The notes under the pieces: generated by a model
What the model was told of the DNA's origin: nothing
Database searches by the model: none
Seen by the model: the letters and a program-made list of their open reading frames with translations, nothing else
Translations under genes and position numbers: made by a program
Source of the DNA: Candidatus Kerfeldbacteria bacterium
GTDB lineage: Bacteria; Patescibacteriota; Patescibacteriia; SBBC01
DNA: 64,000 bases
NCBI GenBank assembly: GCA_043799405.1
Contig: JAZDNT010000002.1
Location: 107,320-171,319 of the forward strand
Direction of reading: 5' to 3'
Shown here: positions 1 through 56,177 of the stretch, in pieces
Layout: each line of letters opens with the position of its first letter
Position numbering within the stretch: position 1 is the stretch's first letter

Positions 1-41
1 GCCTAGTCGTCGTGCGTCGGGCCATGACCATTCCTCGTCGC

Positions 42-3080: not shown

Positions 3081-3087
3081 GATGTCC

Positions 3088-9475: not shown

Positions 9476-9492
9476 CAGAAGGGGCGCTTCAC

Positions 9493-9921
9493 ATGCTCAA
9501 GCGCCGCACTTCCGTCGCCGATCACGCTGGCATGTTCGTGCGATTCGTTTCGAGTGTTCCGGACCCAGAGAACTCGAACGAGCCGGCCGGCCTGTTGTTG
9601 GTGGCCTCCTGGATTCGTGACCGACAACAGGCGTCGGCCTCGGAGCTGGCCCAGCTTCAAGCGCTTCGCCAATGGTTCAACGACAACCTGGCCCGGCCAC
9701 GCAAGTTCAATCGATCTCGTCGGCCGCATCGTCGAGAGAAAGCAATCTCCTAGTTCAAGGATTCCGCGGTGGAACACCTTCGCCGGGCTCGAGTGATCGC
9801 TGCCATTGTGGGTGCGTGCGGGTACGTGATCCGCGAGGTGCGGACTCGAAGGCCCGGCTACGTGGTCTATGAGGACGAGTGGCAGGTGGTCGCAGAGCCG
9901 TTCGCGGAGACGGTGAGATAG
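9493..9921 (+). pseudogene. small conserved-looking ORF interrupted by an in-frame TAG
   Basis: The 86-codon ORF ends at TAG 9751-9753. The same frame continues for 55 more protein-like codons (FKDSAVEHLRRARVIAAIVGACGYVIREVRTRRPGYVVYEDEWQVVAEPFAETVR) to TAG 9919-9921. A Trp codon (TGG) is plausible at the interrupted position (AIS*FK). Confidence 0.5.
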
Positions 9922-9937
9922 GTCCAGCCTCTGAGTT

Positions 9938-10000
9938 CGCGACGTAGCGAAAGACGCACGCATCGTTATGGAAAGCGATGCGTGCGTTTGGTTCTAATGA
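9938..10000. repeat. about 60 bp repeat, copy 1, with a 12 bp perfect stem-loop
   Basis: cgaaagACGCACGCATCGttatggaaagCGATGCGTGCGTttggttcta. The second copy is at 12508-12568. Confidence 0.8.
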
Positions 10001-10122
10001 GCGGCGCCAACCCACGACCCGGTCAGCGTAACGAACGTCTGGGTGCTTTCTCCTTCCGCTGAACACGGTCGCGGCCCTCCGTCGAGCGGCGCGCAGCATG
10101 CGCGCGCGACGCCCGGCGCGAG

Positions 10123-11871: not shown

Positions 11872-12507
11872 GTTCACTGCTCCCTCCCTTGCGAGGCCAC
11901 CCATCGCGCGATCGGACTCCTGGCTTGGCCAGACGTGTCCCCTCGAGCCCCCGTGGCCATGCATCACCTCCGACGCAAGGACCGAGAACGGCGCTTTCTC
12001 CGCATGGACTTGCTCTCGGGCTCAGGTGATTGGGCTGGCGGCAAGTGGCACTGAAGGAGCGACCCCATCCTGAGCAGGCCCCGTGCTGAGGTCAAGCGGT
12101 CAGCTAAGGCGCAAGACTGGTGGGCCGGAGGTGGCGGCCAGGCCGCCAAGTGGGGCTGCCAAGCTATGTGCCGGTGCGATGCGGGTGGGGCGGGTGCACG
12201 CGCCGCGCCAGCAACCCGACCTCCCCCGTCAGAAGAGCACGCAGCTCGGGCCCCCGCCACGAGGCCGCCCGGACATGCAACGGTGGCCCAATGTCCTACT
12301 TCTGGAAAAGTGGGACATTCCCGATTCGGCTGGGCAGGCGGGGGCCGGCCGGCGGCCGATCGGGTACCCGTCGCGCAAGAAAGACGCGGACCTGCACGGC
12401 CGCCCACAATGGAGTTGAAGTAGGTGACCGACCGGAGGTACATCTCTGCGGTCACCCCAGTCGCCTCGGGCCGGGGTCTCTGAGCGCAGCGTCCCACCTC
12501 TCCGTGC

Positions 12508-12568
12508 GCGTCGACACGAAAGACGCACGCACTGTTATGCGAAGCAGTGCGTGCGTTTCGTTCTAGAG
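12508..12568. repeat. about 60 bp repeat, copy 2, with a 12 bp perfect stem-loop
   Basis: cgaaagACGCACGCACTGttatgcgaagCAGTGCGTGCGTttcgttcta. The stem differs from copy 1 by paired compensatory changes (CATCG/CGATG versus CACTG/CAGTG). Confidence 0.8.
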
Positions 12569-12616
12569 AGCAAAGCGCGGTGGCCACTGACCGCGCATAA
12601 CCCATAGCCCAGCATA

Positions 12617-12889
12617 AGACCTCAGCCCGATGGCGAGGGCATAATCGGCGGCCGGCTTGCCGTTAACGCAGGTGAGGACCCCGAACATCTGGGCTCCATC
12701 TCGCGCGAGCGCGAAGGCCTCGGACTGGATCGTGAGGCCGAATCTCGGCACGTGGAGCTCTACCTCCTCGACGAAGCGGCCATACGGCACCGGGTGGTAG
12801 CTCTCCGTGGGTTCGGGCACGGGGATGGCGGCGAGATCGGCCTTGGTGGCCTCCCAGCCGCCGCGATGGACAACGAGCGTTCCGGACAT
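12617..12889 (-). pseudogene. DUF932-family protein, N-terminal fragment
   Basis: MSGTLVVHRGGWEATKADL...ADYALAIGLRS, then element-derived codons run on to a stop at 12563. The sequence continues logically into the fragment at 5674..6135 (GLRS | SYDRSLS...GSRTFVCDNL). Confidence 0.75.
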
Positions 12890-12919
12890 CGGTGGACTTC
12901 CTTCTTCGGGGGCGAGAAC

Positions 12920-13387
12920 TCAGAGCTGTTGCCGAGCGCGCAAGGACACGACCCCACGGCCGGCGACGATGACGTGGTCGAGGACGGAGATGCCGAGAAG
13001 CTCCCCGGCTCCGACCAAGCGTTTGGTGATCGAGAGGTCCTCATCGGAGGGCTCGGGGTCGCCCGACGGATGGTTGTGGACCAAGACCAGGGCCGCCGCA
13101 GCTTGCGTCACGGCCGGACGGAACACTTCGCGCGGATGAACGATCGAGGCGTTCAAGGACCCGATCGAGACCGTCTCCTGGCCCATGACCTCGTGCCGGG
13201 CATTGAGGAGCAGGACGAGGAAATGCTCCCGGCTCTCCTTCCGGAGCTTCGGCCCAACGAGCCGCACGACATCGTCGGGTCCGCGGATCTCGGGGAGCCT
13301 CCGGCCTCGGTAGCGGCGCCGTGTGAGTTCGCAGACGTACACGGGGAACTCCTGCAGGGGCGGGAATGAAGAGGGGCTCCGGATCAC
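12920..13387 (-). CDS. radC: RadC-like JAB/MPN domain protein
   Basis: Motif LVHNHPSGDPEPSDEDLSITKRL...LDHVIV is typical of the RadC/DUF2466 family. Confidence 0.85.
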   Translation of the reverse strand: MIRSPSSFPPLQEFPVYVCELTRRRYRGRRLPEIRGPDDVVRLVGPKLRKESREHFLVLLLNARHEVMGQETVSIGSLNASIVHPREVFRPAVTQAAAALVLVHNHPSGDPEPSDEDLSITKRLVGAGELLGISVLDHVIVAGRGVVSLRARQQL

Positions 13388-13589
13388 GTCGATCAGGAGC
13401 CCCGCGGGATGGAAGGAGCGAAGGAGCAGGAACAGGTAGGGGCGGCGGCCGTCAGGGGTGCGACTTCAGCGGGCCGCCTGCGTGGCCCCCGATAGCACGT
13501 CAGGCGTCCACGCTTGGGCGCCCTCCGTCGGGCCGCCGACACCCTCCCTGTCTACTCTGTTGGCATGTCTCCGGGAGGAGACGGGCTGC

Positions 13590-14360
13590 TTACTCCCCGC
13601 GCCAACGCTGGCAGTGGGCGAAGTACTCGCACTCGCTGCAACGCCACGATGGGTTGGGGTAGAAGTGCTCGGTCTGAATGGCCAGGGCGACTTGCTGGAT
13701 GAGCCGGGCGGTCCAGCCGAGGTCCTCGACCGTGCGGGTGGTCTCGTGCCGCTCCAGTCGAGGCTTGGTCGTCTTGAGCAGCATGTCGAGCCGGAGCTTC
13801 GGGATCGTCCCGTGGAGAAGGAAGAAGGCGAGGGCGTACGTGGACAGCTGCAGGTGCCGCTCGAGGCCCCCTTGCTCAAGGGTCCTTGCCGCCGTCTTCA
13901 GATCGACCAACGTCTCCCCCTCCTCCACGAGATCGACGACACCGCGGAGCCGCACGTCGAGCAGTTCGCCGGTCTCAGGATCGGCGAGGTCCAGCTCGAA
14001 GGGCTGCTCGACGGCGACGGGCTTCACTCCGTTCACGGACTCCATGTAGAGCTGGAGCATGGCGCGGCCCTTCTCGGCGAGAGAGTCCTTCGACTCGGCG
14101 CCAGTGAAGACCAACGGCTCCAGGTTCTGCGCGTACCAGTCCGCGTCGAAGATCTTGAGGACCTCGGTCAGGTCCGTCGTCCTGCCGGCGAGCCGTTCCT
14201 TGTGGAACCACTCGACTGCTGCATGGACAGACGAGCCGAAGGCGAGCGCGGAGGCCCGCCACGGCCGTGGAATCTGGTCCACGTACTGGAAGCGGTACTT
14301 GAGGGGGCAGCCGAGGTAAGCGTTGACCTGGCTGAGGCTAGAAGTCCGGGGTTGCTCCAC
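13590..14360 (-). CDS. PD-(D/E)XK nuclease, Cas4/RecB-like, with Cys cluster
   Basis: VVDLVEEGETLVDLKT (D...DxK), QLSTYALA (QxxxY). An N-terminal Cys (GCPLKY) plus C-terminal CSECEYFAHC fit a 4-Cys Fe-S site of Cas4/AddB-type nucleases. Confidence 0.75.
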   Translation of the reverse strand: MEQPRTSSLSQVNAYLGCPLKYRFQYVDQIPRPWRASALAFGSSVHAAVEWFHKERLAGRTTDLTEVLKIFDADWYAQNLEPLVFTGAESKDSLAEKGRAMLQLYMESVNGVKPVAVEQPFELDLADPETGELLDVRLRGVVDLVEEGETLVDLKTAARTLEQGGLERHLQLSTYALAFFLLHGTIPKLRLDMLLKTTKPRLERHETTRTVEDLGWTARLIQQVALAIQTEHFYPNPSWRCSECEYFAHCQRWRGE

Positions 14361-15030
14361 GGCCCGCTCCCTGGGGGGCAGGGTTCAGAAGCCGGTCAAT
14401 CATCGCCGTGGCCGCGGGCTTGGTGACCTCGGACAGCGAGCCCACTTGGAACAGGTCCTTGAGCCTCTCCTCGGCCGCTTCGCGCTGGTAGCCCTGGCCC
14501 GCCATGAGGCGGAAGAGGTACCGGCGCTGGGCCTCGGACATTGGCTCTGACCCGTTGCCGGATCGAGGCGCTGACTTCGGGGCTCCGTTCCCGTTCCCAC
14601 GCGGGCGCGCGGGAGTCGGGGTCTTGACGTGGCGTGGGGAGCGCGACGCAGGGGGTGCACCCGACCCGGGGCTTGAGTCCCGGTCCAGGCTGACGCCGTC
14701 CAACTCCTCGAAGGAGACGACGCCGACGTTGACGGCGTCACGGAGGGCGCGGGCCTTGGCCCGGGTCTCGGCCACGCGGATCAGGTGCGGGGCGAGGAAG
14801 TCCTCGACGCTGCCGGGATCGGCATCGCCGAGGCCCTCGAAATGGCCCCGCTCGACCTCGACGACCGCCTTGACGATCGCGAGGTGGCCGTTCTGATCGC
14901 TCGGGGTAGTGAGCAGCTCGGTCTGGATGGACTTAAGGCCCTCCTCGTGGGCCTTGGAGAGGAGTTCGGCATAGACGACGGCTTCCCGGGGCTCGGCAGG
15001 CGAGCCGGGGGCGATATTCTGGGCCTTCAT
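14338..15030 (-). CDS. hypothetical protein, possible DNA-binding/annealing partner of the adjacent nuclease
   Basis: 230 aa. Its stop overlaps the nuclease start by 23 nt. Conserved-looking core (RVAETRAKARALRDA), Pro/Ser/Gly-rich linker, helical C-terminus. Function not recognised. Confidence 0.45.
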   Translation of the reverse strand: MKAQNIAPGSPAEPREAVVYAELLSKAHEEGLKSIQTELLTTPSDQNGHLAIVKAVVEVERGHFEGLGDADPGSVEDFLAPHLIRVAETRAKARALRDAVNVGVVSFEELDGVSLDRDSSPGSGAPPASRSPRHVKTPTPARPRGNGNGAPKSAPRSGNGSEPMSEAQRRYLFRLMAGQGYQREAAEERLKDLFQVGSLSEVTKPAATAMIDRLLNPAPQGAGRGATPDF

Positions 15031-15182
15031 GGGAAGGCTCCTTGTCAGGGGGCGAGTGGGTCTGCCGAATCACGTGCAGCAGCGCTTTCTATAGGGTACG
15101 TTCGGAGCACTTACAGTCGTAGGAGGGCTAACGCGCTGGACGCGGCGCTCACTGTGGACGACTGCGCAAGGGACTAGGCTCC

Positions 15183-16583
15183 ATGAGAGACATGCTCTTT
15201 GTCAGCCATGCGAATCCTGAAGACAACGAGGCCGCGCGCTGGTTGGCCCTCCAACTCGCTCGCGAAGGCTATCCGGTCTGGTGCGACCTGACCAAACTTC
15301 TCGGGGGTGAAGACTTCTGGCGCGACGCTGAACAAGCTATCAGGGAGAGGACAGCTAAGTTCCTCTACGTTCTGACTCGCGTGTCGAACGACAAGCAGGG
15401 CGCGCTCGACGAGTTGCAGGTTGCCAAGAACGTCGCCCGCGAACACAAGTTCCACGACTTCATCATCCCGCTGCGGTACGACGATCTTCCGCCGCGTCAG
15501 GCCAACATTCGCTTGGCAAACCTCAATTCCGTCCCGTTTCACGGTGGCTGGGCTGCCGGTCTTGCTCAGCTCCTCCAGAAGCTCGCGGAAGAGGGCGTAG
15601 CGAAGGATCCCCGTTTCTCACCGACGTCAGTCGCGAAGTGGTGGCGTAGGTTCTATCGTAGGGAGCAACTACTTCGGCGGGAGCCCGAGAGACTCGTCTC
15701 GAACTGGTTTCCGGTTCTCGACCCACCGCCGTTGCAACTCCACGAGCTCCGCTCGCGCGATGCTGTCTCGGAACTGGAGCTTTCCAGAACGCTGCCATAC
15801 CCAGCCATCCAGCATGAGGAGTGCCTCGTCTCATTTGCCGACGCGCATGACTTCGCCGAGGCACTCCCAGCTGGCCTTTCGGTGGTGCGCTCGCGGCGCC
15901 TCATGCTAACCCGTGATGCTGAAGACGAGCGGCGCGAGTGGTGGACCTTCGACCAGGAGCACAACGCCCTGATCGCGCTCCTTCGCCAAGCCTGGGTGAA
16001 GCACCTGCGGGATCGGGCCATGCCGACCTACGTCTTTGCGAGCGGTGGCGAGTCGATGTACTTCACCTCGGGCCTAGCCTCGGAGGACCGGGTGTACCTT
16101 CCGTCGAAGAACGGCGGCCGTCAGCCCTACCGGCAGGTGCTCGGCTTTGCCACAACGCGAAAGGCCACGGCCGAGGCGCCAGCGAGGCTGCGGTACTGGC
16201 ACTTTGGCGTGGAAGCGCGGCCGACGCTTGATCCGCAGCTTGCCTACGCGATGCGGCCGCATGTCCTCTTCTCTGACGACGGGCAGACGATCTGGGACAA
16301 CAAAGACCTCCTGCACCGAGCGCGCCGCAACCAGTGTAAGCAGTGGTGGAACGACGTCTGGCGAGACCGCCTTCTCGGAACGGTCCTTTGGCTCGCGGAT
16401 GGCAAGGAGCATCTCGCCCTGTCTGCGGGGTCCAGTCAGACCTTGCTTCTTGCCACGCGGCCGCTCGAGTACACCTCGCCGCTGACCTACGACGATTCGG
16501 GCTTCGAGGGCCCACCGCTTGATGAGGGAGACGATGAGGACATCGAAGAAGAAGCCTCCGCGCCGGCGAGCGGGTCAGTCTAA
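15183..16583 (+). CDS. TIR-APAZ protein (SPARTA effector subunit)
   Basis: N-terminal TIR-like domain (LFVSHANPEDNEAARWLALQLAREGYPVWCD, ...GALDELQVA...). Long APAZ-type region (SNWFPV, YWHFGVEA, KQWWNDVWRDRLL). Acidic C-terminal tail (DEGDDEDIEEE). Sits directly upstream of a short pAgo. Confidence 0.85.
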   Translation: MRDMLFVSHANPEDNEAARWLALQLAREGYPVWCDLTKLLGGEDFWRDAEQAIRERTAKFLYVLTRVSNDKQGALDELQVAKNVAREHKFHDFIIPLRYDDLPPRQANIRLANLNSVPFHGGWAAGLAQLLQKLAEEGVAKDPRFSPTSVAKWWRRFYRREQLLRREPERLVSNWFPVLDPPPLQLHELRSRDAVSELELSRTLPYPAIQHEECLVSFADAHDFAEALPAGLSVVRSRRLMLTRDAEDERREWWTFDQEHNALIALLRQAWVKHLRDRAMPTYVFASGGESMYFTSGLASEDRVYLPSKNGGRQPYRQVLGFATTRKATAEAPARLRYWHFGVEARPTLDPQLAYAMRPHVLFSDDGQTIWDNKDLLHRARRNQCKQWWNDVWRDRLLGTVLWLADGKEHLALSAGSSQTLLLATRPLEYTSPLTYDDSGFEGPPLDEGDDEDIEEEASAPASGSV

Positions 16584-16638
16584 GCCAACGCTCAGGCCTC
16601 CTCACCGCCGGAGTCGACTCCAACGCGGATCGATCCTC

Positions 16639-18138
16639 GTGCTGCGGGAGCCAAGGGTCCTCTTTCACCACAGCCAAGCACTTGAGGACCCACGTGATGG
16701 CCTGACGCTCTTTGGCCCGCTCGAAGGCCCGTTCGGGCTCCGGATTGGGGTCATCGGCACGCTGTACGGCATTCGCCTATACCGCGCGTGGGCCGAGCGC
16801 ATCCGCGGGCCGCTCGCGAACGAGGTGGGGTCGTACCTCTCTGATCCACACTTTCCCGGGTTCGAGTCGGCGTTCCGCATCCCGTGGCAGCTTGAGCCTG
16901 CGCTCACGATCGAGGTTGACCCCGAAGAGCTCGATCGAGTTGTACACCACGGCGACCCTCACCAGCGCGTCTTTGCTACGGTCGCCCTATTTGCCGAGCC
17001 GATCGTCGCGGCGCTGCGGAATGAAGAGGTCAAGGTCGACGTCTGGTTCGTGGTCATCCCGGATGTCGTGCACGAGAACTGCCGCCCGCGGTCTCGCTTG
17101 CCGCTCGATGAACGCACCGAAGATGATGCACCGGCGCACATCCGCGCCAAGGAGGCGCGGGAGCTTTTCGATCAGCCCTCGCTTTTCGCGGAAGATCACG
17201 AGGCGGCCACTCCGTACTACTTCGAGGTTGACTTCCACAACCAGCTCAAGGCCCGGCTCCTCGGGAATCTGGCGCCCACCCAGATTGTTCGCGAAAGTAC
17301 GCTCGCCTTCCCACCGAAGGAGGTGCGCCTACCGCCGGGTCGCGACAAACGCAAGCTCCAAGCAGCGGTGGCCTGGAGTCTTTCAACCGCCGCCTTCTAC
17401 AAGGCCGGCGGGAAGCCCTGGAAGATCGCCGAGATCCGCAAGGGCGTGTGCTACGTCGGGCTCGTCTTCAAGCAGGACGTAACGCAGCGCGATCCTCGCA
17501 TGGCATGCTGTGCCGCGCAGATGTTTCTGGACTCCGGAGATGGGACGGTCTTCCGCGGAGCGGTTGGGCCATGGCATTCATCTGAGCGCCACGAGTTTCA
17601 CCTTAGCCACGCAGCGGCTCGCGAGCTCATCGCCGTGGCGGTGGCCTCGTACGTAGACAAGGCCGGGCATCCACCACGGGAGCTCTTCATCCACGGCAAA
17701 GCGTATTTCGAAGATGAAGAATGGGCAGGTTTCCAGGCAGGCGTCGACGCGCGAATGACCACGCTCGTCGGCGTGCGTATCCGAGACACAGCAGATCTGC
17801 GGTTGTACCGGCCTGGCACTCACCCGGTCTTGCGCGGCACAGCTCTCGTGCGTGGCCGCAACTCTGCGTACCTGTGGACTCGCGGATTCGCCCCGCTCCT
17901 GCGTACGTACGTCGGACGCGAGGTCCCGAAGCCGCTCCGGATCGATGTGCTCCGTGGCACGGCCGAACTGCGCAAGGTCCTTGCCGACATCTTGGCTCTG
18001 ACCAAGCTCAACTTCAACACCTGCATCTTTGCCGATGGCCTGCCAGTTACTTTGCGATTTGCGGATGCTGTCGGCGAGATCCTGACAGCTGGTCCCGTCG
18101 GGCAGAGCAACCCACTCGCGTTCAAGTACTACATCTGA
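16639..18138 (+). CDS. short prokaryotic Argonaute (MID-PIWI only; SPARTA sensor subunit)
   Basis: PIWI hallmarks AAFYKAGGKPWKI, CCAAQMFLDSGDGTVFRG, LTKLNFNTCIFADGLPVTLRFAD, C-terminal ...LAFKYYI. About 500 aa, so it lacks N/PAZ domains. Start is uncertain: GTG 16639 (chosen by expected length), or ATG 16522/16534, which overlap the upstream gene. Confidence 0.85.
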   Translation: MLREPRVLFHHSQALEDPRDGLTLFGPLEGPFGLRIGVIGTLYGIRLYRAWAERIRGPLANEVGSYLSDPHFPGFESAFRIPWQLEPALTIEVDPEELDRVVHHGDPHQRVFATVALFAEPIVAALRNEEVKVDVWFVVIPDVVHENCRPRSRLPLDERTEDDAPAHIRAKEARELFDQPSLFAEDHEAATPYYFEVDFHNQLKARLLGNLAPTQIVRESTLAFPPKEVRLPPGRDKRKLQAAVAWSLSTAAFYKAGGKPWKIAEIRKGVCYVGLVFKQDVTQRDPRMACCAAQMFLDSGDGTVFRGAVGPWHSSERHEFHLSHAAARELIAVAVASYVDKAGHPPRELFIHGKAYFEDEEWAGFQAGVDARMTTLVGVRIRDTADLRLYRPGTHPVLRGTALVRGRNSAYLWTRGFAPLLRTYVGREVPKPLRIDVLRGTAELRKVLADILALTKLNFNTCIFADGLPVTLRFADAVGEILTAGPVGQSNPLAFKYYI

Positions 18139-18218
18139 TGTTAGGCGCAGATTGGTAAACGCACGCAGCCTGCTGCATCGCTGTGGGACACGTACTCACG
18201 CACGAACGGGGCAGGGCC

Positions 18219-18974
18219 ATGCTTCCAAAGAGACCCACTGACATTCGCTCGGCAGTCGACCAGCTCTTCGACAAGGAACCACTCCCCCCTGACCTTGCCC
18301 GGCATCTTCTGAGTGCGTGGAGCTCCAATCTCAACGCCACGGAGCGCAGCGTGAGTCGTGGATTTCTTGCGATCGTCGCTACCTTTGCGGGGTTCATAAC
18401 CCTCGACACGAAGATCCTGACAAAGATCGCGTTTCAAGGTGCCGAAATTGGACGCACTGGAATCATCCTATGCTTTGCCACTGGCGCAATGTCCTATTTT
18501 TATTACAGATGCATTACACAGCTAGGATTTGCCCATGACCTGCGCACGGCGATTGCAGTGCTCTATCGGAGGCTCCATGAGCCTGTTTATATCGGCGGCC
18601 TTGATCTCCTGACCCACGTACCGAGCATAAGGAATCTAGAGGCATACGATTCATTCTATGCGCCCAAAAGCCTCCGCGTCTTTCACGAGCGAACAACGGA
18701 TGTGGTCACACTTGCCCTACTGCTTGGCCCTCTGGTCGTGGTCGTATACTGCACGATTCGGCTGTGGAGTTATCCCGATGTTAGACCTGTCCTCTGGACT
18801 GTCACTGTCTTGGCGGCGCTCGTGTTTGTCTTGCGCGCGTGGCTCTATGGTCTCAGGCAGAAGGGTGATGATGTCTTCGCCGATCGCCGCTTGGAGTCGC
18901 TGTCCGACTCCCCCAAGGGAGCGGGCGCCAACGCTGCGGAACACGATGACGAGGCAGTCGCGCCAAAGTCCTGA
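18219..18974 (+). CDS. hypothetical 4-TM membrane protein downstream of the SPARTA pair
   Basis: Same strand, about 80 nt after the pAgo stop. Hydrophobic helices (FLAIVATFAGFITL, GIILCFATGAMSYFYY, VVTLALLLGPLVVVVYCTI, VLWTVTVLAALVFVL). Locally more AT-rich than its neighbours. No family recognised. Confidence 0.55.
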   Translation: MLPKRPTDIRSAVDQLFDKEPLPPDLARHLLSAWSSNLNATERSVSRGFLAIVATFAGFITLDTKILTKIAFQGAEIGRTGIILCFATGAMSYFYYRCITQLGFAHDLRTAIAVLYRRLHEPVYIGGLDLLTHVPSIRNLEAYDSFYAPKSLRVFHERTTDVVTLALLLGPLVVVVYCTIRLWSYPDVRPVLWTVTVLAALVFVLRAWLYGLRQKGDDVFADRRLESLSDSPKGAGANAAEHDDEAVAPKS

Positions 18975-18994
18975 TGCACACGCAAGCCCTCGGG

Positions 18995-19230
18995 CCAGCT
19001 GCGATAGCTAGTGCGAGAGCATCAAACATGTGCAGCCAGTACTTGTCCCGCGGTCGCAGCCCCAGCGCCGCCCGTTTCGGGATCAACTCCTTCAGCTCAT
19101 CGAGACGCCTGCCTGACCAATGCCTCCGCGACATGGATCTTCGTCGCCTTCGGGTTCCCGACCACGGGGGGATCGCACTCTCCGGAGCGCGTCAAGGGGT
19201 TCTTTGCTTTGGTCTTGTCCGACGTCAGCT
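18995..19230 (-). pseudogene. 5'-truncated, frameshifted remnant of a RuvC-like gene
   Basis: Two minus-strand frames give ...GNPKATKIHVAEALVRQ... and ...IPKRAALGLRPRDKYWLHMFDALALAIAA, matching the C-terminal ~80 aa of CDS 20548..21066. A 26 nt core is identical (19025-19050 = 20594-20619). Confidence 0.7.
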
Positions 19231-19979
19231 TATACCGGCCATAGCCGATCAGCTCGTGCGCCGGGTTGCCACGGGTTGACGGCCCAGACTTCTCTGAAGT
19301 GCACCGTCTCGCGACGCAGCGCCGCGCGCATTTCTCCCAGCTCGGTGTCTCCGTACGGAGTAAGGTCGAAGAAGATCGCCAGGACGACCTCTGACGGCAC
19401 TGGTCCGAGGTGCAACTGCTTCTTGCGGAGAGCCTCGAGTCCGCGCGCGGCCACGACGTCGTGGTCGAAGTGAAATGGTGGTCCCTGAATCGAGATGTTT
19501 GACCGATCAGCGTCGATGCCTTCGAGTTCCATCTCGGCGATGCCCATGTCGTCCGCATGCGGCGCGAGAATCCTCTTCTCGCCGGGGGAGAGCGGCGAAA
19601 CCACACTCCTCAAGATCGTCTCGCGGAGTACCGCGCCCATTGCCTTGCGATCACGTCGGCTATCTGGGAGCCGGTGAACCCAGATCGTCAACTTGAAGCC
19701 CTTCAGAGCCCCGGACATGAGCGGTTCCTGAATTTCCGCGTAAGCCCACTGCCCCGCTATCGCCCGCTTCGCCCGCTCCTCCTTCTCATTGCTCGCAGCG
19801 CAGGTGTGCTGCACGAGGAGCGGCGGGGCGCCTCGGGCGGAGCTGGGCCAACGGTAGTCCCAGTCGGTGTGCGGAGCCTCGATGGGCTGGCCGGCGAACG
19901 CGGTGTGGTGAATGCGGTTGTACGCCGAGAGAAAGAGATCAAGGAATTTCTGTCGTGCCAAACCTTTCAGTTCAGCCAT
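19230..19979 (-). CDS. hypothetical protein (249 aa)
   Basis: Start MAELKG with GGAGGGAGAGG SD. Balanced, globular-looking composition. No family recognised. Confidence 0.55.
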   Translation of the reverse strand: MAELKGLARQKFLDLFLSAYNRIHHTAFAGQPIEAPHTDWDYRWPSSARGAPPLLVQHTCAASNEKEERAKRAIAGQWAYAEIQEPLMSGALKGFKLTIWVHRLPDSRRDRKAMGAVLRETILRSVVSPLSPGEKRILAPHADDMGIAEMELEGIDADRSNISIQGPPFHFDHDVVAARGLEALRKKQLHLGPVPSEVVLAIFFDLTPYGDTELGEMRAALRRETVHFREVWAVNPWQPGARADRLWPV

Positions 19980-20202
19980 TCGCCTCTCCCTCCATCCGCT
20001 ACAGACTAACAAGTCTCTAGCGCCACGGCCATCCCCAAGGCTCATGCCTGCGTCGCCATTTATCGCATTCGTCGTCCTAATCCTTTTGATTGTGGTCGGC
20101 TTGTGTTTGGACCGCTGGAAGCGCCTAGGCTCACGGCGCCCCATTGCCCTTCACTCAGGACCGTGCTTGAATAGAATGGTCCTATTACTAACGCATCACC
20201 TT

Positions 20203-20526
20203 ATGACTGAACGTAATCTAGGGATGGAGCACGGGGACAATGATCCCGAGAGAATCAAGGCGGCACTTACTGCAGAGCTTGCCGATCTCGCATCACGCAT
20301 GGCATCGGTCGACAGAAACGGCGTGACGTCGTTTCGTTTTGGCGACAAGCCACGCACAATGGATGAGGTCTATATTGAACTGGAAGTTGACGACGCCACA
20401 GGTGAAATCGAACTGATCGAGCCTGGGACCATCAAGGTGCACTCAAAAACGCATGATCCCGTCGAAGCCGCCCAGTGGGTTCGCGAACAGATTGCCCAAG
20501 AGGACGAGAAGCGGCGTGAGGCCTGA
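20203..20526 (+). CDS. hypothetical small acidic protein (107 aa)
   Basis: Divergent from 19230..19979 across an AT-richer spacer. MTERNLGMEHGDNDPERIKAAL... Start uncertain (ATG 20203 or 20224). Confidence 0.4.
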   Translation: MTERNLGMEHGDNDPERIKAALTAELADLASRMASVDRNGVTSFRFGDKPRTMDEVYIELEVDDATGEIELIEPGTIKVHSKTHDPVEAAQWVREQIAQEDEKRREA

Positions 20527-20547
20527 TCCACAAGCACCCGCTCCGGA

Positions 20548-21066
20548 TCAAGTCGCATTGACGCTTGCGGCGACCGCGATCGCCAGAGCGTCGAACATGT
20601 GCAGCCAGTACTTGTCCCGTGGTCGTAGCCCGAGCGCCGCACGCTTCGGTCGATTCGGGATGAGTGGCGTGAGTTGGTCAAACCCCTGCGCTACGAGCAC
20701 CTCGGCCACCTCGATCTTCGTCGTCCTTGGGTTCCCCGTGACGCGCTCGCGAATCGTCGCCGGCGACAGCTCGACGACCACAACCCCCAACTCTTCTGTC
20801 CTGCTCCGCAGTTCCTGCTCGATCACCGACATGAGCGCGGCCCGTTTGGTCGGGAGCATGAGGGGTTCCTCGATCGCCACGATGTCGGGCCCGTGCTTCT
20901 CGATTTCCGCGAGGACGATTCGCTTCGCCTGCCCGATCACGTCGTAGGGTCGGGTACCATTCCGAAGCGTCCGCACGCCGTAGGCGAGCAGCTCACGTCC
21001 GCGGAGGACAGCGAGACCCATCTCCTTCGTTCCGGGATCGATGCCGAGGATGGTCTTGTGTTGCAT
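20548..21066 (-). CDS. RuvC-like Holliday-junction resolvase fold nuclease, copy A
   Basis: ILGIDPGTKEMGLAVL (Asp 1), IVAIEEP (Glu), HMFDALAIAVAA (Asp), in the order expected for RuvC-family catalytic acidic residues. 172 aa. Confidence 0.7.
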   Translation of the reverse strand: MQHKTILGIDPGTKEMGLAVLRGRELLAYGVRTLRNGTRPYDVIGQAKRIVLAEIEKHGPDIVAIEEPLMLPTKRAALMSVIEQELRSRTEELGVVVVELSPATIRERVTGNPRTTKIEVAEVLVAQGFDQLTPLIPNRPKRAALGLRPRDKYWLHMFDALAIAVAASVNAT

Positions 21067-21186
21067 GGGTTGAGTCGTGAGTTGGTTTCAAATGCCCTCC
21101 CGAAGGTCTGCTCGTCGGAGGTCCCTTGCGGACCACCTCCGAGGCAGCGGCGCTCGACAAGGCGGAGGCGCCGAGAGACGGCCGGA

Positions 21187-21702
21187 TCACCGGCCGCGGG
21201 AGGGCGGTTGCGTCGCTGTCTGGTGGTGCATGGCGAGCGCGACGGCGTCGAACATGTTCTGCCAGAAGCGCTCCTTCCACTTCCGGTCCTGCGTGAGGTA
21301 GACGCGGAGCTGCGGGAAACGCACTGCGACAGCCACGGCTGCTTCAGCCTTCGTGGCTCGTCCGTTGCCGAGCACGCCCTGGCGGACCTGCTGCGGCGAG
21401 TAGGTCGCAAACGGGATGCCCTGCAACCGGGCGAGTCGACGCACCGTGAGGGTCAGGCGGTGGACATCGTCGAGCCAGGGCAGGGGGTGGTGGTACGTCT
21501 TCTCCATCACGATCGCGTGCGGGTGGTGCAGACGGAGCCAGCCCTTCACGTGCCGGCGGACTTCTTTGAGGCGCGCGCTGCGAGGCAAACGTCGAAGCGT
21601 CAGGGCTCCGGCGGCAGCGAGCCGGCGGCCGGAGAGCACGGCCATGCCGAGGTCGCGGAGACCGGGATCGATGGCGAGGATGGGTTCAGTTCGATGGTTC
21701 AT
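21187..21702 (-). CDS. RuvC-like nuclease, copy B (paralog of copy A)
   Basis: ILAIDPGLRDLGMAVL, AIVMEKT, NMFDAVALAMHH. 171 aa. Its start overlaps the upstream wHTH gene by 17 nt. Confidence 0.7.
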   Translation of the reverse strand: MNHRTEPILAIDPGLRDLGMAVLSGRRLAAAGALTLRRLPRSARLKEVRRHVKGWLRLHHPHAIVMEKTYHHPLPWLDDVHRLTLTVRRLARLQGIPFATYSPQQVRQGVLGNGRATKAEAAVAVAVRFPQLRVYLTQDRKWKERFWQNMFDAVALAMHHQTATQPPSRGR

Positions 21703-22222
21703 GGGCGTGTTGCTTTAGGAGATAAAGGAAGAGCGCGGTTCGGGACCGTCGGATTCGTGTCTCGGGCACGGCCAGCGTGCCGGCAAGGGCGCGTTTCACG
21801 ACCGAGTCAGGGTAGAGGCTGAGCGCCGCCTGGAATGCTTCCTCGTTCCCGGGCTCGCCGAGTGCCCGCTGGAGCTTCGCGACCGTGAAGAACCGCGTGG
21901 GCACTGGCGGTGGTTCGGCCTGCGCCTTCGGGGAATCAACGCGCTTCATCGTTACCCGGACCTTGCCGTTGAGCCGCACGGCGTCGAGGTAGCCAGCCTT
22001 CCGCAGGTGTCCGAGCCAAGAGCGGATCGTCCCTTCAGGCAGCCCCATGTCCCGCCCGATCGCCGCGGGCTCCGCCTCGAATGTCTCAGCGCCGGCCGGC
22101 AGCCGGGCCAGGAGGTCGAGGTAGAGCCAGAGTCCCGCGCGCATGCGTCGCAGGTGGTAGGCCCGCGGATGCTCGAGGATGCGGCGATCGAGGGCGAGCG
22201 TGATGGGTCGAGGGAAAGACAT
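21686..22222 (-). CDS. winged-helix DNA-binding protein, copy 1
   Basis: N-terminal LWLYLDLLARL...IGRDMGLPEGTIRSWLGHLRKAGYL (wHTH-like). The C-terminal ...RRSRTALFLYLLKQ motif is shared with the neighbouring gene. Confidence 0.55.
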   Translation of the reverse strand: MSFPRPITLALDRRILEHPRAYHLRRMRAGLWLYLDLLARLPAGAETFEAEPAAIGRDMGLPEGTIRSWLGHLRKAGYLDAVRLNGKVRVTMKRVDSPKAQAEPPPVPTRFFTVAKLQRALGEPGNEEAFQAALSLYPDSVVKRALAGTLAVPETRIRRSRTALFLYLLKQHAHEPSN

Positions 22223-22238
22223 GGAGTCTGGAGGATTA

Positions 22239-22838
22239 CTAGCTGAGCTTTCGAAGCAGGGAGCGGAAGAGCGCGGCGCGTGAGACGCGGATCGAGGTCG
22301 TCGCCTGGACGCGCTTCAAGGCGCGATGGACGAGCGAGGGATTGCGTCCGGAGAGGAGCGTTCGGAACTCGTCGCGGTCGGCGTCAGGCCCGAGGACTGC
22401 AAGCACTTCGTCGAGCAGCGCCTCTCCTTCCCCCTGCCCCCCATCCTCTTGCTGCTTAGCTGCTGCAGCAGCGCTGCTGACGGGTACTTCTCTATGCACC
22501 TCGCTGCTGGAGGCCGCGGAATCAGGGGAGGAAGGGTGCTCGACATGGTTGCTGTCAGACCATGCTTTGAGCTTGATGACAAGGTACGGCGTCGGCGTGT
22601 GGACCTCGATGAGGTCTGCGTTGCTCAGCCGCTCCAGCCACCCCGCGAGCTGTTCTTCTTCGAGGCCAAGATCCAGCGCGAGCCGATCCGCTGGCCGGCA
22701 GACGACACCGCGGTAGTTCGCACGTGCGGCGAGCATGACGTAAAGCCAGAGCGCATCGCCGACCAGAGCACGACCACCGGGGAGCTGGAGCGGCGCCTCG
22801 ATGATCCGCCGTGCGTGTTGTGGCAGGCATCCGCTCAT
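22239..22838 (-). CDS. winged-helix DNA-binding protein, copy 2 (paralog)
   Basis: LWLYVMLAARANY...LALDLGLEEEQLAGWLERLSNADLI and C-terminal ...RVSRAALFRSLLRKL. Same architecture as 21686..22222, with a low-complexity linker. Confidence 0.55.
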   Translation of the reverse strand: MSGCLPQHARRIIEAPLQLPGGRALVGDALWLYVMLAARANYRGVVCRPADRLALDLGLEEEQLAGWLERLSNADLIEVHTPTPYLVIKLKAWSDSNHVEHPSSPDSAASSSEVHREVPVSSAAAAAKQQEDGGQGEGEALLDEVLAVLGPDADRDEFRTLLSGRNPSLVHRALKRVQATTSIRVSRAALFRSLLRKLS

Positions 22839-23119
22839 GCGCTTGCGGCGTTGGCGGAGCCTCCGTCCTTCGGAAAGGTGGAGTAGAAGTCCATGTACAG
22901 CGACTCCGCGAGCGTGCCGAGGATCTTGGCCATCTTGAGCAGCCGGGGGACGCTGGGCAGCGTAAGTCCTCGTTCCCAGGAGGAGATCGCGTTGCGCTTG
23001 CGGCCGAGCATCTCGGCCAGCCTCCGCTGGGAAAGGCCAGCTTTGATCCGGTACTCCCGGATCTTGTTCGGGAATCTGGGCGCGTGGCGGGACGCGCGCG
23101 GGGTGTGCTGGACAGGCAT
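22835..23119 (-). CDS. XRE-family HTH transcriptional regulator (cI/Cro-like)
   Basis: IREYRIKAGLSQRRLAEMLGRKRNAISSWERGLTLPS. Its stop overlaps the next start (ATGA). Start uncertain (ATG 23119; the ORF extends to 23194). Confidence 0.75.
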   Translation of the reverse strand: MPVQHTPRASRHAPRFPNKIREYRIKAGLSQRRLAEMLGRKRNAISSWERGLTLPSVPRLLKMAKILGTLAESLYMDFYSTFPKDGGSANAASA

Positions 23120-23191
23120 GCCGTCAGGATAGCGACCCGAAGGAAAACCGAACAGGGGGGTAAAAGCGTGGAAATGCGGACATCCTGTGGA

Positions 23192-23219
23192 CAACCCGAT
23201 ATTGACAACTTACCCATAG
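23192..23219 (+). promoter_or_regulatory. near-consensus sigma70-type promoter in the divergent regulator region
   Basis: TTGACA (23192-23197), 16 nt spacer, TATACT (23214-23219), about 40 nt upstream of ATG 23259. The segment is AT-rich within the GC-rich island. Confidence 0.5.
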
Positions 23220-23258
23220 GTAATATACTGAAAGCAGAGATCACTAATCACTACACCT

Positions 23259-23477
23259 ATGGCAACACCACTCCCCATCGTCACCTACGAAGGCAAGCGC
23301 TGGTTCTTCGACGCCCGGCTGCAACAACTCCGCACCGTAGACCGCGACCGCCCACTCGAGTTCCGCGACCTCAACGATTTCGAGATGGAATACTTCAAGG
23401 GCCTCGTCGAAAAGGGCGAGGTTGACTACCTGGCCGTTGACACCCGGCGGCCCGTGAATACAGCGACTAAGTCTTGA
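23259..23477 (+). CDS. hypothetical small protein (72 aa)
   Basis: First gene transcribed divergently from the XRE regulator. No family recognised. Confidence 0.45.
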   Translation: MATPLPIVTYEGKRWFFDARLQQLRTVDRDRPLEFRDLNDFEMEYFKGLVEKGEVDYLAVDTRRPVNTATKS

Positions 23478-23734
23478 GCATTAGCAACACTTCCATGGCA
23501 CTTCCAACACACATCACCCACGAGCCCGCCGACCCCGACGCTTGGGTCTGTCTCTGCGGGAACACCCCGACCTTAGAGGGCTTCCTCCCCTGCGACGTAC
23601 AGGGACGCCCCGTCTCCCCAACCCCCCAGGACTGGACGACGAACGCCTACGTTTGCAATCGGTGCGGACGCATTATCGAGGATGGCAGCCTTGAGATCGT
23701 CGGGCAGGCCGAGAAGGACGCTGCAGCGCCATGA
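23474..23734 (+). CDS. hypothetical Cys-pair (zinc-ribbon-like) protein
   Basis: CLCG...CNRCG spacing. Start uncertain (TTG 23474 or ATG 23495). Confidence 0.4.
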   Translation: MSISNTSMALPTHITHEPADPDAWVCLCGNTPTLEGFLPCDVQGRPVSPTPQDWTTNAYVCNRCGRIIEDGSLEIVGQAEKDAAAP

Positions 23735-23877
23735 AGCACCTCAACGTTCCGGCGCTCGTCTGCCTCCGGTGCGGCCACGCGTGGATCGCTCGCGGCCCGA
23801 TCGTGAAGATCTGCCCGCGCTGCAAGTCCAAGCTGTGGGACGTGCCGAAGAAGAAGTCCCCGAGTTCTGACCGTTAG
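23731..23877 (+). CDS. small zinc-ribbon protein (48 aa, below the ORF-track cutoff)
   Basis: My own translation: MKHLNVPALVCLRCGHAWIARGPIVKICPRCKSKLWDVPKKKSPSSDR. Contains CxxC...CxxC. ATGA overlap with the upstream stop. Confidence 0.5.
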   Translation: MKHLNVPALVCLRCGHAWIARGPIVKICPRCKSKLWDVPKKKSPSSDR

Positions 23878-23926
23878 CGCCTCCGCCCCCCTACGCTCCC
23901 TTGACTTGGTCGGGCATGATGAAGAC

Positions 23927-24148
23927 ATGCTCGGACCAGGTGCGGCCAACGACAGGAGCTTCGCCTTCGGCCTCACGCCCGACGAGGTCGATCGCTTCCG
24001 CGACATCATGCGCCGGGAGTGCGGCGTCGAACTCACCCCCGAACAGGCGTGGGCCCGCGCTATTGAGTTGCTCTCGCTTTTCCGGATGCTACTCGGTCCG
24101 CTGCCGGAGGATCGACCTGCGCCCCAGTTCGAACATCGTCGCTCTTGA
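23927..24148 (+). CDS. hypothetical small helical protein upstream of the serine recombinase
   Basis: ORF 23906..24148, first ATG at 23927. No family recognised. Its position would suit an accessory or directionality factor, but this is speculative. Confidence 0.35.
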   Translation: MLGPGAANDRSFAFGLTPDEVDRFRDIMRRECGVELTPEQAWARAIELLSLFRMLLGPLPEDRPAPQFEHRRS

Positions 24149-24193
24149 CGGTTTCGGTGATTTCGGGAATTCCTATCAAGACAGCCTCGACCT

Positions 24194-25798
24194 ATGCCCT
24201 CCCACGTCATCTACGCTCGCAAATCCACCGAGTCCGACGACCGCCAGGTCCTCTCGATAGACTCCCAAATCCAAGAGCTGAAGACGCTCGCGCTGCGTCG
24301 TGGCATCACGGTCGCGGATGTGCTGACCGAGGCGCGTTCAGCCAAGGCACCAGGGCGCCCGGTCTTCGGCGAACTCATGCGGCGCGTACGTCGCGGCCAA
24401 ATCGGCGGCATCCTCTGCTGGAAGATGGACCGGCTTGCACGAAACCACCTCGATCATGGCGTAGTCCTTCAGGCACTCGCCGATCGGCAGCTGCGGGAGG
24501 TCATCACCTCGGACCGAACCTACACGGGCGACGGCAACGACCGCTTCCTCGGCAACTTCGAGCTCGGCATGGCCACGAAGTTCATTGATGACCTTCGCGC
24601 GAACGTGAAGCGCGGGAACCGCGCACGCTTCCAGCGCGGCTGGCCGAACTACCGTCCGCCCGCCGGCTACCTCGAGGACCACGCGACCAAGACGATCGTG
24701 AAGGACTCCGTGCGCTTCGACCTCATCCGCCGGGCATGGGACCTGCTGCTTACCGGCACGGTACGCCCGAGCCGGATCTTGGTCGCCCTAAACGACGAGT
24801 GGGGCTACCGCTCCCGGCAGACCAAACAGCGGGGTGGCAGCCCGATGTCGCTGTCCGGCCTTTACGGGATCTTCGAGAACCCGTTCTACGAGGGCCTGAT
24901 CCGTCTCTCCAGCGGCGAGACCTACAAGGGCGCGCACGAGCCGATGGTCGCGCCCGAGGAGTTCGAACGGGCCCAGGAGTTGCTCGGTCGTCCAAGTCGA
25001 GCCCGGCCGGTGCACCACGACTTCACTTTCTCGGGGCTTCTTCACTGCGCCTCGTGCGGCCGGGCGTTAGTCGCCGAGGCGCACATCAAGCCGAGCGGCA
25101 AGCGCTACGTCTACTACCGCTGCCACCGCAGGCGTATCGGCGAGACCTGCTCCGAGCCGGCGCTGCCTGAGGAGATCCTCCGCGAGCAGCTGGTCCAGGA
25201 CCTCAAGCGGATGCGCCTGACACCCGAAGCGGCCGGCTGGATCCGCGACAACCTCAAACACTCGCTCGAGGGCGAGGTCGGCCAACTTCGCACCGTCCGG
25301 GCATCACTGGAGAACGCCGTCCGGCAGGCAGGTGCCGAAGAAGAGACGCTCCTCACCCTGCGGCTCCGAGGCTCGATCGACGACGGGATCTACGAGCGTC
25401 GCAAAACGGCGCTTCAAGACCGCAGGGCGCAACTGCAGCTACGACTCGACCGGCCCGATCAATCGCCGGAGGAGCTGCTAGAGCGCGTGGAACAGGCTCT
25501 CGCCTTCTCGCTGCACGCCCCGCAAGTCTTCCGTGATGGCACGCGGGTTCAACAACGGCAGATCGTGGAGGTGGTCGGGTCGAACTATCGGGTCACCCGG
25601 AGAAAAGCGCTCTACACAGCGAACAAGCCGTTCTCCCTGTTCACGGAAGCAACGGCTTCTTCGCTCTGGTGGACCGTGGCGGATTCGAACCGCCGACCTC
25701 TGCAATGCGAATGCAGCGCTCTACCAGCTGAGCTAACGGCCCTTATTCTGGTTCCCCCACCAGGAATCCCCGCCTGCCTTAAGCTCTGCCCCCACTAG
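24194..25798 (+). CDS. large serine recombinase (integrase)
   Basis: N-terminal resolvase domain (VIYARKSTESDDRQVLSIDSQ, catalytic Ser context). Recombinase domain. Zinc ribbon (CASCGRALV...YYRCHRRRIGETC). Coiled-coil region. The ORF has no stop until 25798, so its last ~45 codons are tRNA-Ala, the spacer and part of tRNA-Arg. Confidence 0.9.
   Translation: MPSHVIYARKSTESDDRQVLSIDSQIQELKTLALRRGITVADVLTEARSAKAPGRPVFGELMRRVRRGQIGGILCWKMDRLARNHLDHGVVLQALADRQLREVITSDRTYTGDGNDRFLGNFELGMATKFIDDLRANVKRGNRARFQRGWPNYRPPAGYLEDHATKTIVKDSVRFDLIRRAWDLLLTGTVRPSRILVALNDEWGYRSRQTKQRGGSPMSLSGLYGIFENPFYEGLIRLSSGETYKGAHEPMVAPEEFERAQELLGRPSRARPVHHDFTFSGLLHCASCGRALVAEAHIKPSGKRYVYYRCHRRRIGETCSEPALPEEILREQLVQDLKRMRLTPEAAGWIRDNLKHSLEGEVGQLRTVRASLENAVRQAGAEEETLLTLRLRGSIDDGIYERRKTALQDRRAQLQLRLDRPDQSPEELLERVEQALAFSLHAPQVFRDGTRVQQRQIVEVVGSNYRVTRRKALYTANKPFSLFTEATASSLWWTVADSNRRPLQCECSALPAELTALILVPPPGIPACLKLCPH
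25667..25742 (-). tRNA. tRNA-Ala (anticodon CGC), CCA encoded
   Basis: Manual cloverleaf: GGGCCGT/ACGGTCC acceptor stem with G3:U70, D-stem GCTC/GAGC, anticodon stem CTGCA/TGCAG, loop TTCGCAT, T-stem GGCGG/CCGCC. 76 nt. Confidence 0.9.
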
Positions 25799-25858
25799 GA
25801 ATCGAACCTAGATCTATCCCTTAGGACGGGATTGTTCTATCCCTTGAACTATGGGGGC
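25787..25858 (-). tRNA. tRNA-Arg (anticodon CCU), no encoded CCA
   Basis: Manual cloverleaf: GCCCCCA/TGGGGGC acceptor stem, D-stem GTTC/GAAC, anticodon stem ATCCC/GGGAT, loop GTCCTAA, T-stem CTAGG/CCTAG. 72 nt. G at position 32 is unusual. Confidence 0.8.
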
Positions 25859-56135: not shown

Positions 56136-56177
56136 GCTGTCCACAGCGTGTCTCGTGGCACCGTACTTAAACCCTCT

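Follow-up and report, generated by a model that had tools for sequence, protein, structure and literature searches.

Why does the gene of a large serine recombinase run, without a stop codon of its own, straight into a pair of tRNA genes? This question is raised by a stretch of 64,000 nucleotides from Candidatus Kerfeldbacteria bacterium (contig JAZDNT010000002.1, positions 107,320 to 171,319; hereafter the window), in which the open reading frame (ORF) of an integrase enters an opposite-strand tRNA-Ala(CGC) gene and ends only in the adjacent tRNA-Arg(CCU) gene. The answer, in which we place high confidence, is that the window holds the right junction (attR) of a non-viral integrated genomic island, and that the element attachment site (attP) of its serine recombinase lies in the last ~40 codons of the recombinase gene itself.

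The fused ORF (24194..25798, + strand) encodes 534 amino acids from an ATG start. It enters tRNA-Ala(CGC) at the tRNA 3′ end, reads it in antisense, continues over the 44-nt spacer and terminates at a TAG codon (25796-25798) 12 nt into tRNA-Arg(CCU). An earlier note on this sequence had described this read-through, and the ORF coordinates and ARAGORN predictions bear it out. The same note considered the recombinase intact through all its domain parts, and this holds as well. Pfam matches to the fused ORF comprise Resolvase (PF00239; E = 1e-18, residues 5-149), Recombinase (PF07508; E = 9e-5, residues 178-264) and Zn_ribbon_recom (PF13408; E = 1e-11, residues 279-337). The catalytic Ser11, within Y7-A8-R9-K10-S11, and the zinc cysteines C285, C288, C310 and C319 all occupy invariant columns of a family alignment (36 sequences including the window). 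The coiled-coil within the zinc ribbon is read from the AlphaFold2 model of P0001, an 86%-identical homolog and not the window protein, in which helices 344-391, 397-418 and 425-448 sit between zinc-ribbon strands 293-309 and 462-476. By the resolvase, recombinase, zinc-ribbon and coiled-coil criteria, the window ORF is a large serine recombinase; its Pfam matches are to serine-recombinase domains only, with no tyrosine recombinase fold (Phage_integr_3, PF16795).

The native C-terminus of the enzyme can be located from its homologs, as the earlier note had proposed. A search of a protein collection returned 929 relatives, and ~107 of the best 120 carry a tail of ~40 residues with the pattern W-x6-V-R-T-[WFY]...P.L (e.g. 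...SSLWWAIAEDVRTWLLNTRGVFLPDL...; in fuller form ...SSLWW[AT]I[AV]EDVRTWLL..LPDL...). The window protein matches this tail through SSLWWTVA and continues with DSNRRPLQCECSALPAELTA..., which is tRNA-Ala antisense, so that it departs from the conserved tail exactly at the start of the tRNA. The earlier note had allowed that the native protein might really extend this far with similar sequence; the tail of the homologs is a different one. Tails in tRNA antisense do recur in the family, with ~10 of the best 120 homologs ending in ..EESNL, ..RDSNPRP, ..GESNP or ..DSNP.

The point of divergence is sharp at the DNA level. Compared with its closest relative (P0001, at locus L001; 83% nucleotide and 86% protein identity), the window integrase gene is identical over 72 nt ending in TGGTGG, which is the longest perfect run between the two genes (the next-longest is 34 nt). 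The sequences then split, with ACCGTGGCGGA-TTCGAACC in the window and GCCATCGCGGAGGACGTTCGAACT in L001; TGGTGG is followed by GCGGA-TTCGAAC in the former and by GCGGAGGACGTTCGAAC in the latter. The two tryptophan codons at the divergence are the antisense of a tRNA ACCA end. A second comparison gives the same picture: the near-identical integrases of L063 (native tail) and of L064 and L073 (both fused to tRNA-Asn) part directly past GTTGCTCCG. The native tail is conserved past any plausible half-site (..F.LP.L), and in the AlphaFold model of P0001 residues 492-505 form a helix (predicted local distance difference test score ~75) while the remaining tail is disordered. Because of this conservation beyond the half-site and the modelled helix, the tail peptide probably has a function of its own.

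The arrangement extends well beyond the window. A genomic scan restricted to one genome per species, all of them metagenome-assembled, yielded 79 loci in Eisenbacteria, many Patescibacteria, Ignavibacteria, Zixibacteria and Aminicenantes, with a few labelled Pacearchaeota or Woesearchaeota. In ~20 of these 79 loci the integrase ORF enters an opposite-strand tRNA gene, always at the tRNA 3′ end. The tRNAs concerned are Gly, Asp, Gln, Ile, Trp (6 loci), Leu, Asn (3 loci), His, Lys and Ser, which together with Ala and Arg of the window makes 12 tRNA species; L093 is also at Arg(TCG). Wherever the fused ORF reads on, the T-loop is translated in one and the same frame, as x-[S/L]-N (D/E-S-N). As the same geometry recurs in ~20 of the 79 loci and ~10 of the 120 proteins, the comparison indicates that the overlap of ORF and tRNA is not a product of chance or random decay, and that the split-gene arrangement is a property of a large, phylum-spanning family rather than of this one island. 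A collection of viral contigs contained a single true relative (33% identity), and ordinary prophages were dropped as candidates on this ground.

Three related elements are complete, which allowed both ends to be compared (Table 1). In L081, L074 and L093/L094, the last with an integrase (P0069) 58% identical to the window enzyme, an orphan tail lies at the far end on the integrase strand. Joining the integrase end left of the shared core to the tail end right of it in silico brought the native tail back in frame at all three loci, and the reciprocal join restored an uninterrupted tRNA 3′ end in each. The L093 element is flanked by host genes: an aminoacyl-tRNA synthetase and tRNA-Pro lie at one end, sigma factor and ABC transporter genes at the opposite one. 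The rebuilding of the attP junction that the earlier note called for was run on these three loci, and the in-frame restoration supports its claim that integration swaps the last codons of the integrase.

Two of these loci show peculiarities. In L081, the encoded CCA of tRNA-Ser (TGG at the left junction, attL, 2784) has become CTG at attR (11608), so that everything 3′ of the discriminator is element-derived and the tRNA-Ser must rely on CCA addition after insertion; at the window junction, unlike the CTG of L081, the element itself supplies TGG. L074 (11590-11700) contains a tRNA-like acceptor and the 3′ half of a T-arm, yet ARAGORN calls no tRNA there. Intron-containing tRNA genes are reported from Patescibacteria in recent work (PMC13011429), and the L074 target may be a gene of that kind.

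A second, decayed element of the family lies within the window itself (54439-56253). The homology of its orphan tail, at 54439, begins exactly at TGGTGC, and the flank upstream is not integrase-like. Between the tail and the integrase remnant at the other end are ~1.6 kb of unrelated sequence, including a 344-aa ORF without a Pfam match. Both the tail type and the target tRNA match those of the complete 8.6-kb element of L093. Partition of the integrase gene between the two element ends is thus seen in L081, L074, L093 and this second window site, while the first window site shows the N-terminal part only.

The attL/attR pairs also narrow down the crossover. In four pairs the shared cores measure 4-8 bp, namely GCGG (L081), TGGCTCCG (L074) and TGGTGC (L093 and the second window site), and their intersection is four bases long, running from position 74 (the first C of CCA) through the discriminator (73) to position 71. 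This interval is the putative crossover, and such short cores are consistent with a large serine recombinase. The attachment site had been placed by the earlier note at or in the 3′ end of tRNA-Ala, overlapping the integrase 3′ end. The overlap stands, and the shared cores put the crossover at the extreme 3′ end (positions 74-71) and not within the tRNA body. A direct repeat of the tRNA-Ala 3′ region, which the note had proposed to look for, was not found: a 25-nt probe with 3 mismatches allowed has no second copy in the window, and the related elements repeat 4-8 bp. Element ends that share only 4-8 bp are what a serine integrase leads one to expect, and a long tRNA repeat should not exist. 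We also considered a crossover inside the T-loop TTCGAA and rejected it, as it would leave a 5-nt insertion (GGACG) in the tRNA, yet all fused tRNAs are intact.

The spacing of the T-loop motif conforms to a known rule. In the Listeria integrase, the motif of the zinc-ribbon domain occupies positions 16-24 of the attP half-site and 11-19 in the host site (attB), that is, 5 bp nearer the centre, whereas the binding register of the recombinase domain does not change between the two sites (Rutherford et al., PMC3783163). Counting tRNA position 74 as base 1, the TTCGAAC-type motif lies at 21-27 in four attP sites (L001 and the reconstructed sites of L081, L074 and L093) and at 16-22 in the four matching tRNAs. 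On this comparison the attP and attB sites follow the published 5-bp spacing rule with the T-loop as the predicted motif, and the zinc-ribbon domain would be the part of the enzyme that reads the T-loop. Codon choice in the native tail agrees with a constraint on the DNA. In 49 loci whose GC content varies widely, V is encoded by GTT in 33, R by CGA in 31 and by AGA in 15, and T by ACC in 34 and by ACT in 11; this pattern indicates that the V-R-T codons are held at the DNA level. Distant subfamilies contain a second copy of GTTCGAACC inside the integrase gene (L032, ~11480; L063, L064 and L073, ~85 nt upstream of the junction; many Patescibacteria loci). It lies 60-90 nt upstream of the crossover and is read R-F-E-P, R-L-E-P or V-R-T-S; this copy could be an accessory site or the fossil of an older attP.

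Table 1 Features of the window and of three complete related elements, with positions in the window or in the named locus
Feature	Sequence	Position	Strand	Description
Integrated genomic island, at least 25.7 kb, ~63% GC	Window	1..25672	.	From composition, Pfam and synteny with L001 and L003
Fused ORF, integrated state	Window	24194..25798	+	Residues 1-491 integrase, then 43 residues from antisense tRNA-Ala, spacer and tRNA-Arg start
Integrase N-part, Int(N), element-derived	Window	24194..25666	+	Catalytic domain, recombinase domain and zinc ribbon with coiled-coil insertion, uninterrupted
Putative element-side (P-left) arm	Window	25601..25672	+	72 nt identical to L001 11408-11479, ending TGGTGG
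tRNA-Ala(CGC)	Window	25667-25742	-	ARAGORN; intact, G3:U70 pair, encoded CCA; host-side right half of attR
Putative crossover interval GTGG	Window	25669..25672	.	tRNA positions 74, 73 (discriminator), 72 and 71, antisense; intersection of shared cores
T-loop TTCGAAC, putative zinc-ribbon-domain motif of host half-site	Window	25684..25690	.	5 bp nearer crossover than in native tail
Spacer between tRNA genes, 44 nt	Window	25743..25786	.	ARAGORN coordinates; crossed by fused ORF
tRNA-Arg(CCU)	Window	25787-25858	-	ARAGORN; holds TAG of fused ORF in its 3′ end
Orphan native tail, attL of decayed second element	Window	54439..54551	+	WCTVVERLRTWILKRKLQIPTYSFDALDTVPRKRRAG*; tblastn against P0115 residues 493-523, E = 2e-11
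Degenerate 3′ remnant of integrase N-part, attR of decayed element	Window	56079..56177	+	...LYRARQ..GTVLKPSWC; reads into tRNA-Arg(TCG) through TGGTGC
tRNA-Arg(TCG), target of decayed element	Window	56178..56253	-	ARAGORN; also target tRNA species of complete L093 element
Complete element, 8.8 kb	L081	Orphan tail 2784-2849; fusion at 11608		Integrase fused to tRNA-Ser(gga); shared core GCGG
Complete element, 8.5 kb	L074	Orphan tail ~3050; fusion at ~11590		Integrase fused to tRNA-like 3′ half; shared core TGGCTCCG
Complete element, 8.6 kb	L093/L094	Orphan tail 2858-2962; fusion at 11477		Integrase fused to tRNA-Arg(tcg); shared core TGGTGC

Taken together, these data suggest the following mechanism. 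In the free circular form, the integrase gene would end in a tail of the form W-[WC]-x5-V-R-T-[WFY]..., the first part of which is predicted to form a short helix. The DNA of this tail imitates the antisense of a tRNA 3′ end, with TGG corresponding to CCA and the V-R-T codons, GTTCGAAC, to the T-loop sequence, which real tRNAs have 5 bp nearer the crossover. Recombination by the enzyme would join attP to a tRNA 3′ end, in this case that of tRNA-Ala(CGC), with the crossover in the four bases from the first C of CCA through the discriminator to position 71, and the tRNA body would remain intact and host-derived. After integration, the integrase would retain residues 1-491 and continue into antisense tRNA, and the native tail would sit at the distant (left) island end. 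On excision the two gene parts would be reunited, with a predicted attP junction of the window sequence ...GCTTCTTCGCTCTGGTGG followed by the tail. Large serine recombinases need a directionality factor to excise, and none was identified here. The window integrase itself presumably catalysed the insertion. Loss of the tail may have a functional consequence, and its exchange could even play a regulatory role.

We weighed three other explanations of the locus. Fusions to tRNA genes might be secondary events, produced by homologous or off-target recombination in elements that normally integrate elsewhere and stay intact, in which case the tRNA-like tail would not be the normal attP. The ~107 intact tails among the best 120 homologs, many of them in chromosomes, fit such a scenario, as does the lack of a tRNA or a further tail within 10 kb downstream of the integrases of L001 and L003. 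The junctions, however, share only 4-8 bp, too little for homologous recombination; fused elements have tail and N-terminal part as their exact boundaries, beyond which host genes follow (L093); the motif, by its 5-bp offset and its codon bias, points to a site kept for the enzyme; and tandem arrays yield intact internal copies. We therefore consider secondary fusion improbable.

An error of assembly, in which unrelated genomes of 63% and 55% GC were joined at a conserved tRNA and the junction between island and host is unreal, is a very improbable explanation. The composition does change sharply at the tRNA pair, and tRNA genes are classic points of mis-assembly in metagenomes. On the other hand, the integrase enters tRNA genes in one register in many independent assemblies, including long-read chromosomes, and the host side bears its own scar of the integrase family at tRNA-Arg(TCG), which makes it a natural target. 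At least two hits of the family on the same host argue against an accidental join of island and host, and a chimera within the tRNA would leave the conclusion on the integrase end unchanged, the sequence up to TGGTGG being that of the element. Plain decay, finally, would place the native stop codon and the attachment site elsewhere and have a deletion truncate the gene and happen to bring it up against the tRNA. Decayed copies are known, one of them at 56079-56177 of the window, and the island has been rearranged, as its inserted trio of tyrosine recombinases attests. Yet one and the same codon is the breakpoint in many lineages and for 12 tRNA species, each of three complete elements still has the missing tail at its opposite end and regains the frame when the parts are joined, and the 491 upstream codons are uninterrupted with all invariant residues kept, so that we rate this the least probable explanation of all.

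The reading of the locus as an attR within a split integrase gene also has to contend with several observations that weigh against it. Many relatives are intact within long chromosomal contigs, some of them complete chromosomes. The 10 kb downstream of the intact integrases of L001 and L003 contain neither another tail or integrase nor a tRNA, so that either accretion needs elements longer than this flank or the site is not always used; the layout of L003, with no tRNA, tail or second integrase, is unexplained by the split-gene model. The 72-nt identity with L001 exceeds the half-site of a serine integrase (~25 bp), which suggests a wider functional site or a recent exchange of the 3′ end. By inspection, the host-side left flanks show no clear dyad partner of the T-loop motif, and the left half of attB accordingly looks only weakly specified. 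In positions 1-24000 of the window, tblastn with 13 and then 123 tails detected no native tail and hence no attL of the island, the orphan at 54439 being the one tail hit of the whole window. Exact look-ups of the HsdM protein and of the fused integrase found no record, and metagenome scans with the host spacer and with the degenerate pattern T-E-A-T-A-S-S-L-W-W, directed at the empty site and at sister contigs, returned zero matches. The left end of the island thus lies outside the window and would carry the native tail there; the expectation of the earlier note that the other end lies beyond the window agrees with the lack of an encoded native tail in 1-24000.

The intact chromosomal copies are partly explained by tandem accretion. 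An element inserting between the N-terminal part of a resident integrase and the tRNA would provide that integrase gene with another tail. L036, L010 and L079 do each have a tandem pair of same-strand integrases; in L036 the upstream integrase is intact, and the copy 5.3 kb downstream, proximal to the tRNA, is fused to tRNA-Asn. In L001 (11675-16537) and L003 (11603-15967), defence-like cargo follows directly past the native tail and ends in a conserved pair of helix-turn-helix and Peptidase_M78 genes. The cargo of L001 resembles a QatABCD system (KAP NTPase, QatB, a QueC-like gene and a TatD nuclease), and that of L003 comprises a ThiF gene and a multiubiquitin gene, with host-like genes next. 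A tRNA remnant or T-loop motif was looked for in the gap past the cargo of L003, and none was found.

Orphan tails are also found downstream of intact integrases, on the integrase strand and 1-5 kb apart. L008 and L034 have three each, and L005, L009, L010, L011, L015, L026, L029 and L032 have one each. In L008 (11560-21497), the tails delimit a set resembling a cyclic-oligonucleotide-based antiphage signalling system (a weak match to a SMODS nucleotidyltransferase, a Cap15-type receptor domain and a ThiF/E1-like gene), a LexA-like gene and a patatin-like phospholipase. In L034 (1800-8900), every orphan tail is preceded by a shared non-coding hairpin flank of 75-167 nt. We rejected the idea that these tails are leftovers of whole integrase genes, as their homology reaches back to precisely the W/TGG codon and the sequence preceding them does not resemble an integrase. 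The arrays are either accreted, decayed elements or integron-like cassettes that move alone. An integron-like platform would be an array of promoterless cassettes beside the integrase gene, each ending in a recombination site and the newest nearest to the integrase. The tail arrays of L008, L034 and others delimit defence genes, and their enzyme class differs from that of integron integrases. It is conceivable, if rather doubtful, that the family is a phylum-spanning clade of serine integrases which uses the CCA end, discriminator and T-loop of tRNAs as a landing pad and keeps attP in its own codons. Its C-terminal helix, present only in the free form or when supplied by a neighbouring element, would then act as a sensor of integration, and successive insertions, each bringing a new tail and defence cargo, would build integron-like arrays downstream of one integrase.

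How unusual such an enzyme would be is evident from the literature. According to Mageeney et al. 2020 (PMC7192596), no serine integrase had been reported to use a t(m)RNA gene, and the 14 cases among their 297 predictions still await proof by experiment. The Islander paper states that serine recombinases are not known to target tRNA genes; a preprint on tycheposons lists a large serine recombinase in 27 of 937 elements without site details, and the word 'tRNA' is absent from a large survey of these enzymes (PMC10083194). A 2021 review describes the splitting of the integrase gene on integration as exclusive to archaeal tyrosine integrases. Our literature search found no serine integrase with attP in its own gene and no 'suicidal' serine integrase, in agreement with the remark of the earlier note that an integrase spanning its own attachment site is not known as a described feature of large serine recombinases.

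The family shares traits with several known systems. With the large serine integrases of Listeria (A118/LI), phiC31, Bxb1 and SPbeta (SprA) it has in common the domain order, short attL/attR cores and the lack of long repeats, and with the LI integrase also the 5-bp outward shift of the attP motif (PMC3783163). It differs from all of these by an attP in its own coding sequence, by tRNA 3′ ends as targets and by the universal T-loop as putative motif. The archaeal SSV-type 'suicidal' integrases (SSV1, pTN3, pT26-2) likewise keep attP in the integrase gene, target tRNA genes and are partitioned into N- and C-terminal parts, and related elements accumulate (PMC8371274). These are, however, tyrosine recombinases reported only from archaea, in which the catalytic part is separated and the gene inactivated, whereas the family described here consists of serine recombinases, is mostly bacterial and exchanges only the last ~40 residues, with every recognised domain left in one ORF. 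The window enzyme works like the SSV type in splitting its gene at a tRNA, yet by its different fold and its unseparated catalytic part it is not a member of that type.

In the mycobacteriophages BPs and Brujita, attP is reported to lie in the 3′ end of a phage gene, and integration alters the C-terminus of its product, so that a protein records whether the phage is integrated or free (PMC3694055, PMC4557955). The gene cut in this integration-dependent immunity is the repressor and the integrase is of the tyrosine type, whereas in the present family the gene cut is that of the integrase. Islands with tyrosine integrases of the Islander/TIGER type share tRNA targets, tandem accretion, decayed remnants without an integrase, and defence cargo; they use tyrosine integrases and leave a displaced tRNA fragment as a direct repeat of tens of bases, in contrast to the 4-8 bp core and displaced integrase tail found here.

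If correct, this would be the first bacterial case, and the first for a serine recombinase, in which integration splits the gene of the integrase itself. The data give sequence-level support for the targeting of tRNA genes by serine integrases. The attP would be readable from the integrase 3′ end and attB from the tRNA 3′ end, directly in genomes. Such readable sites, combined with a near-universal T-loop, would make the family easy to test as a supply of integrases whose targets are predictable, conserved and present in almost any organism. The family would also be a natural test of the 5-bp model of attP/attB spacing, and it offers a possible mechanism by which defence islands beside tRNA genes could grow in little-studied phyla, among them Patescibacteria and Eisenbacteria.

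Composition and gene content on either side of the junction identify the left part of the window as island and the right part as chromosome. Backbone genes of the island, assigned by Pfam, encode DUF932, RadC, a PD-(D/E)XK nuclease, two RuvC-like proteins and a helix-turn-helix protein; its cargo includes a type I restriction-modification system, a TIR-domain gene and the inserted trio of tyrosine recombinases. The island is syntenic with the DNA that precedes the integrase in L001 and L003, and this synteny stops at 25693-25702. The GC content is ~0.63 in the island, 0.62 in 25001-26000 and 0.34 in 26001-27000, and returns to ~0.55 further right. The shift from GC-rich to AT-rich sequence claimed by the earlier note is hence real as a drop right of the tRNA pair, but the AT-rich sequence is confined to one 1-kb patch. 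Beyond this patch lie the housekeeping genes for initiation factor IF-2, RNase Y, a DHH phosphoesterase and a Mur ligase.

The patch itself (25900-27000, 34% GC) adjoins tRNA-Arg(CCU) and is flanked on its other side by the gene for a 1061-aa LysM/fn3 surface protein. It contains a small AT-rich ORF (26072-26353, - strand) without a Pfam match and promoter-like sites, one of which (25960-25931, - strand) lies upstream of the tRNA pair. Within the island, three consecutive tyrosine recombinase genes occupy 6193-9475 on the + strand (6193-7563, ~7560-8471 and 8306-9475), each matching Phage_integrase. They look like a recombinase-in-trio insertion between DUF932 and the remaining island backbone.

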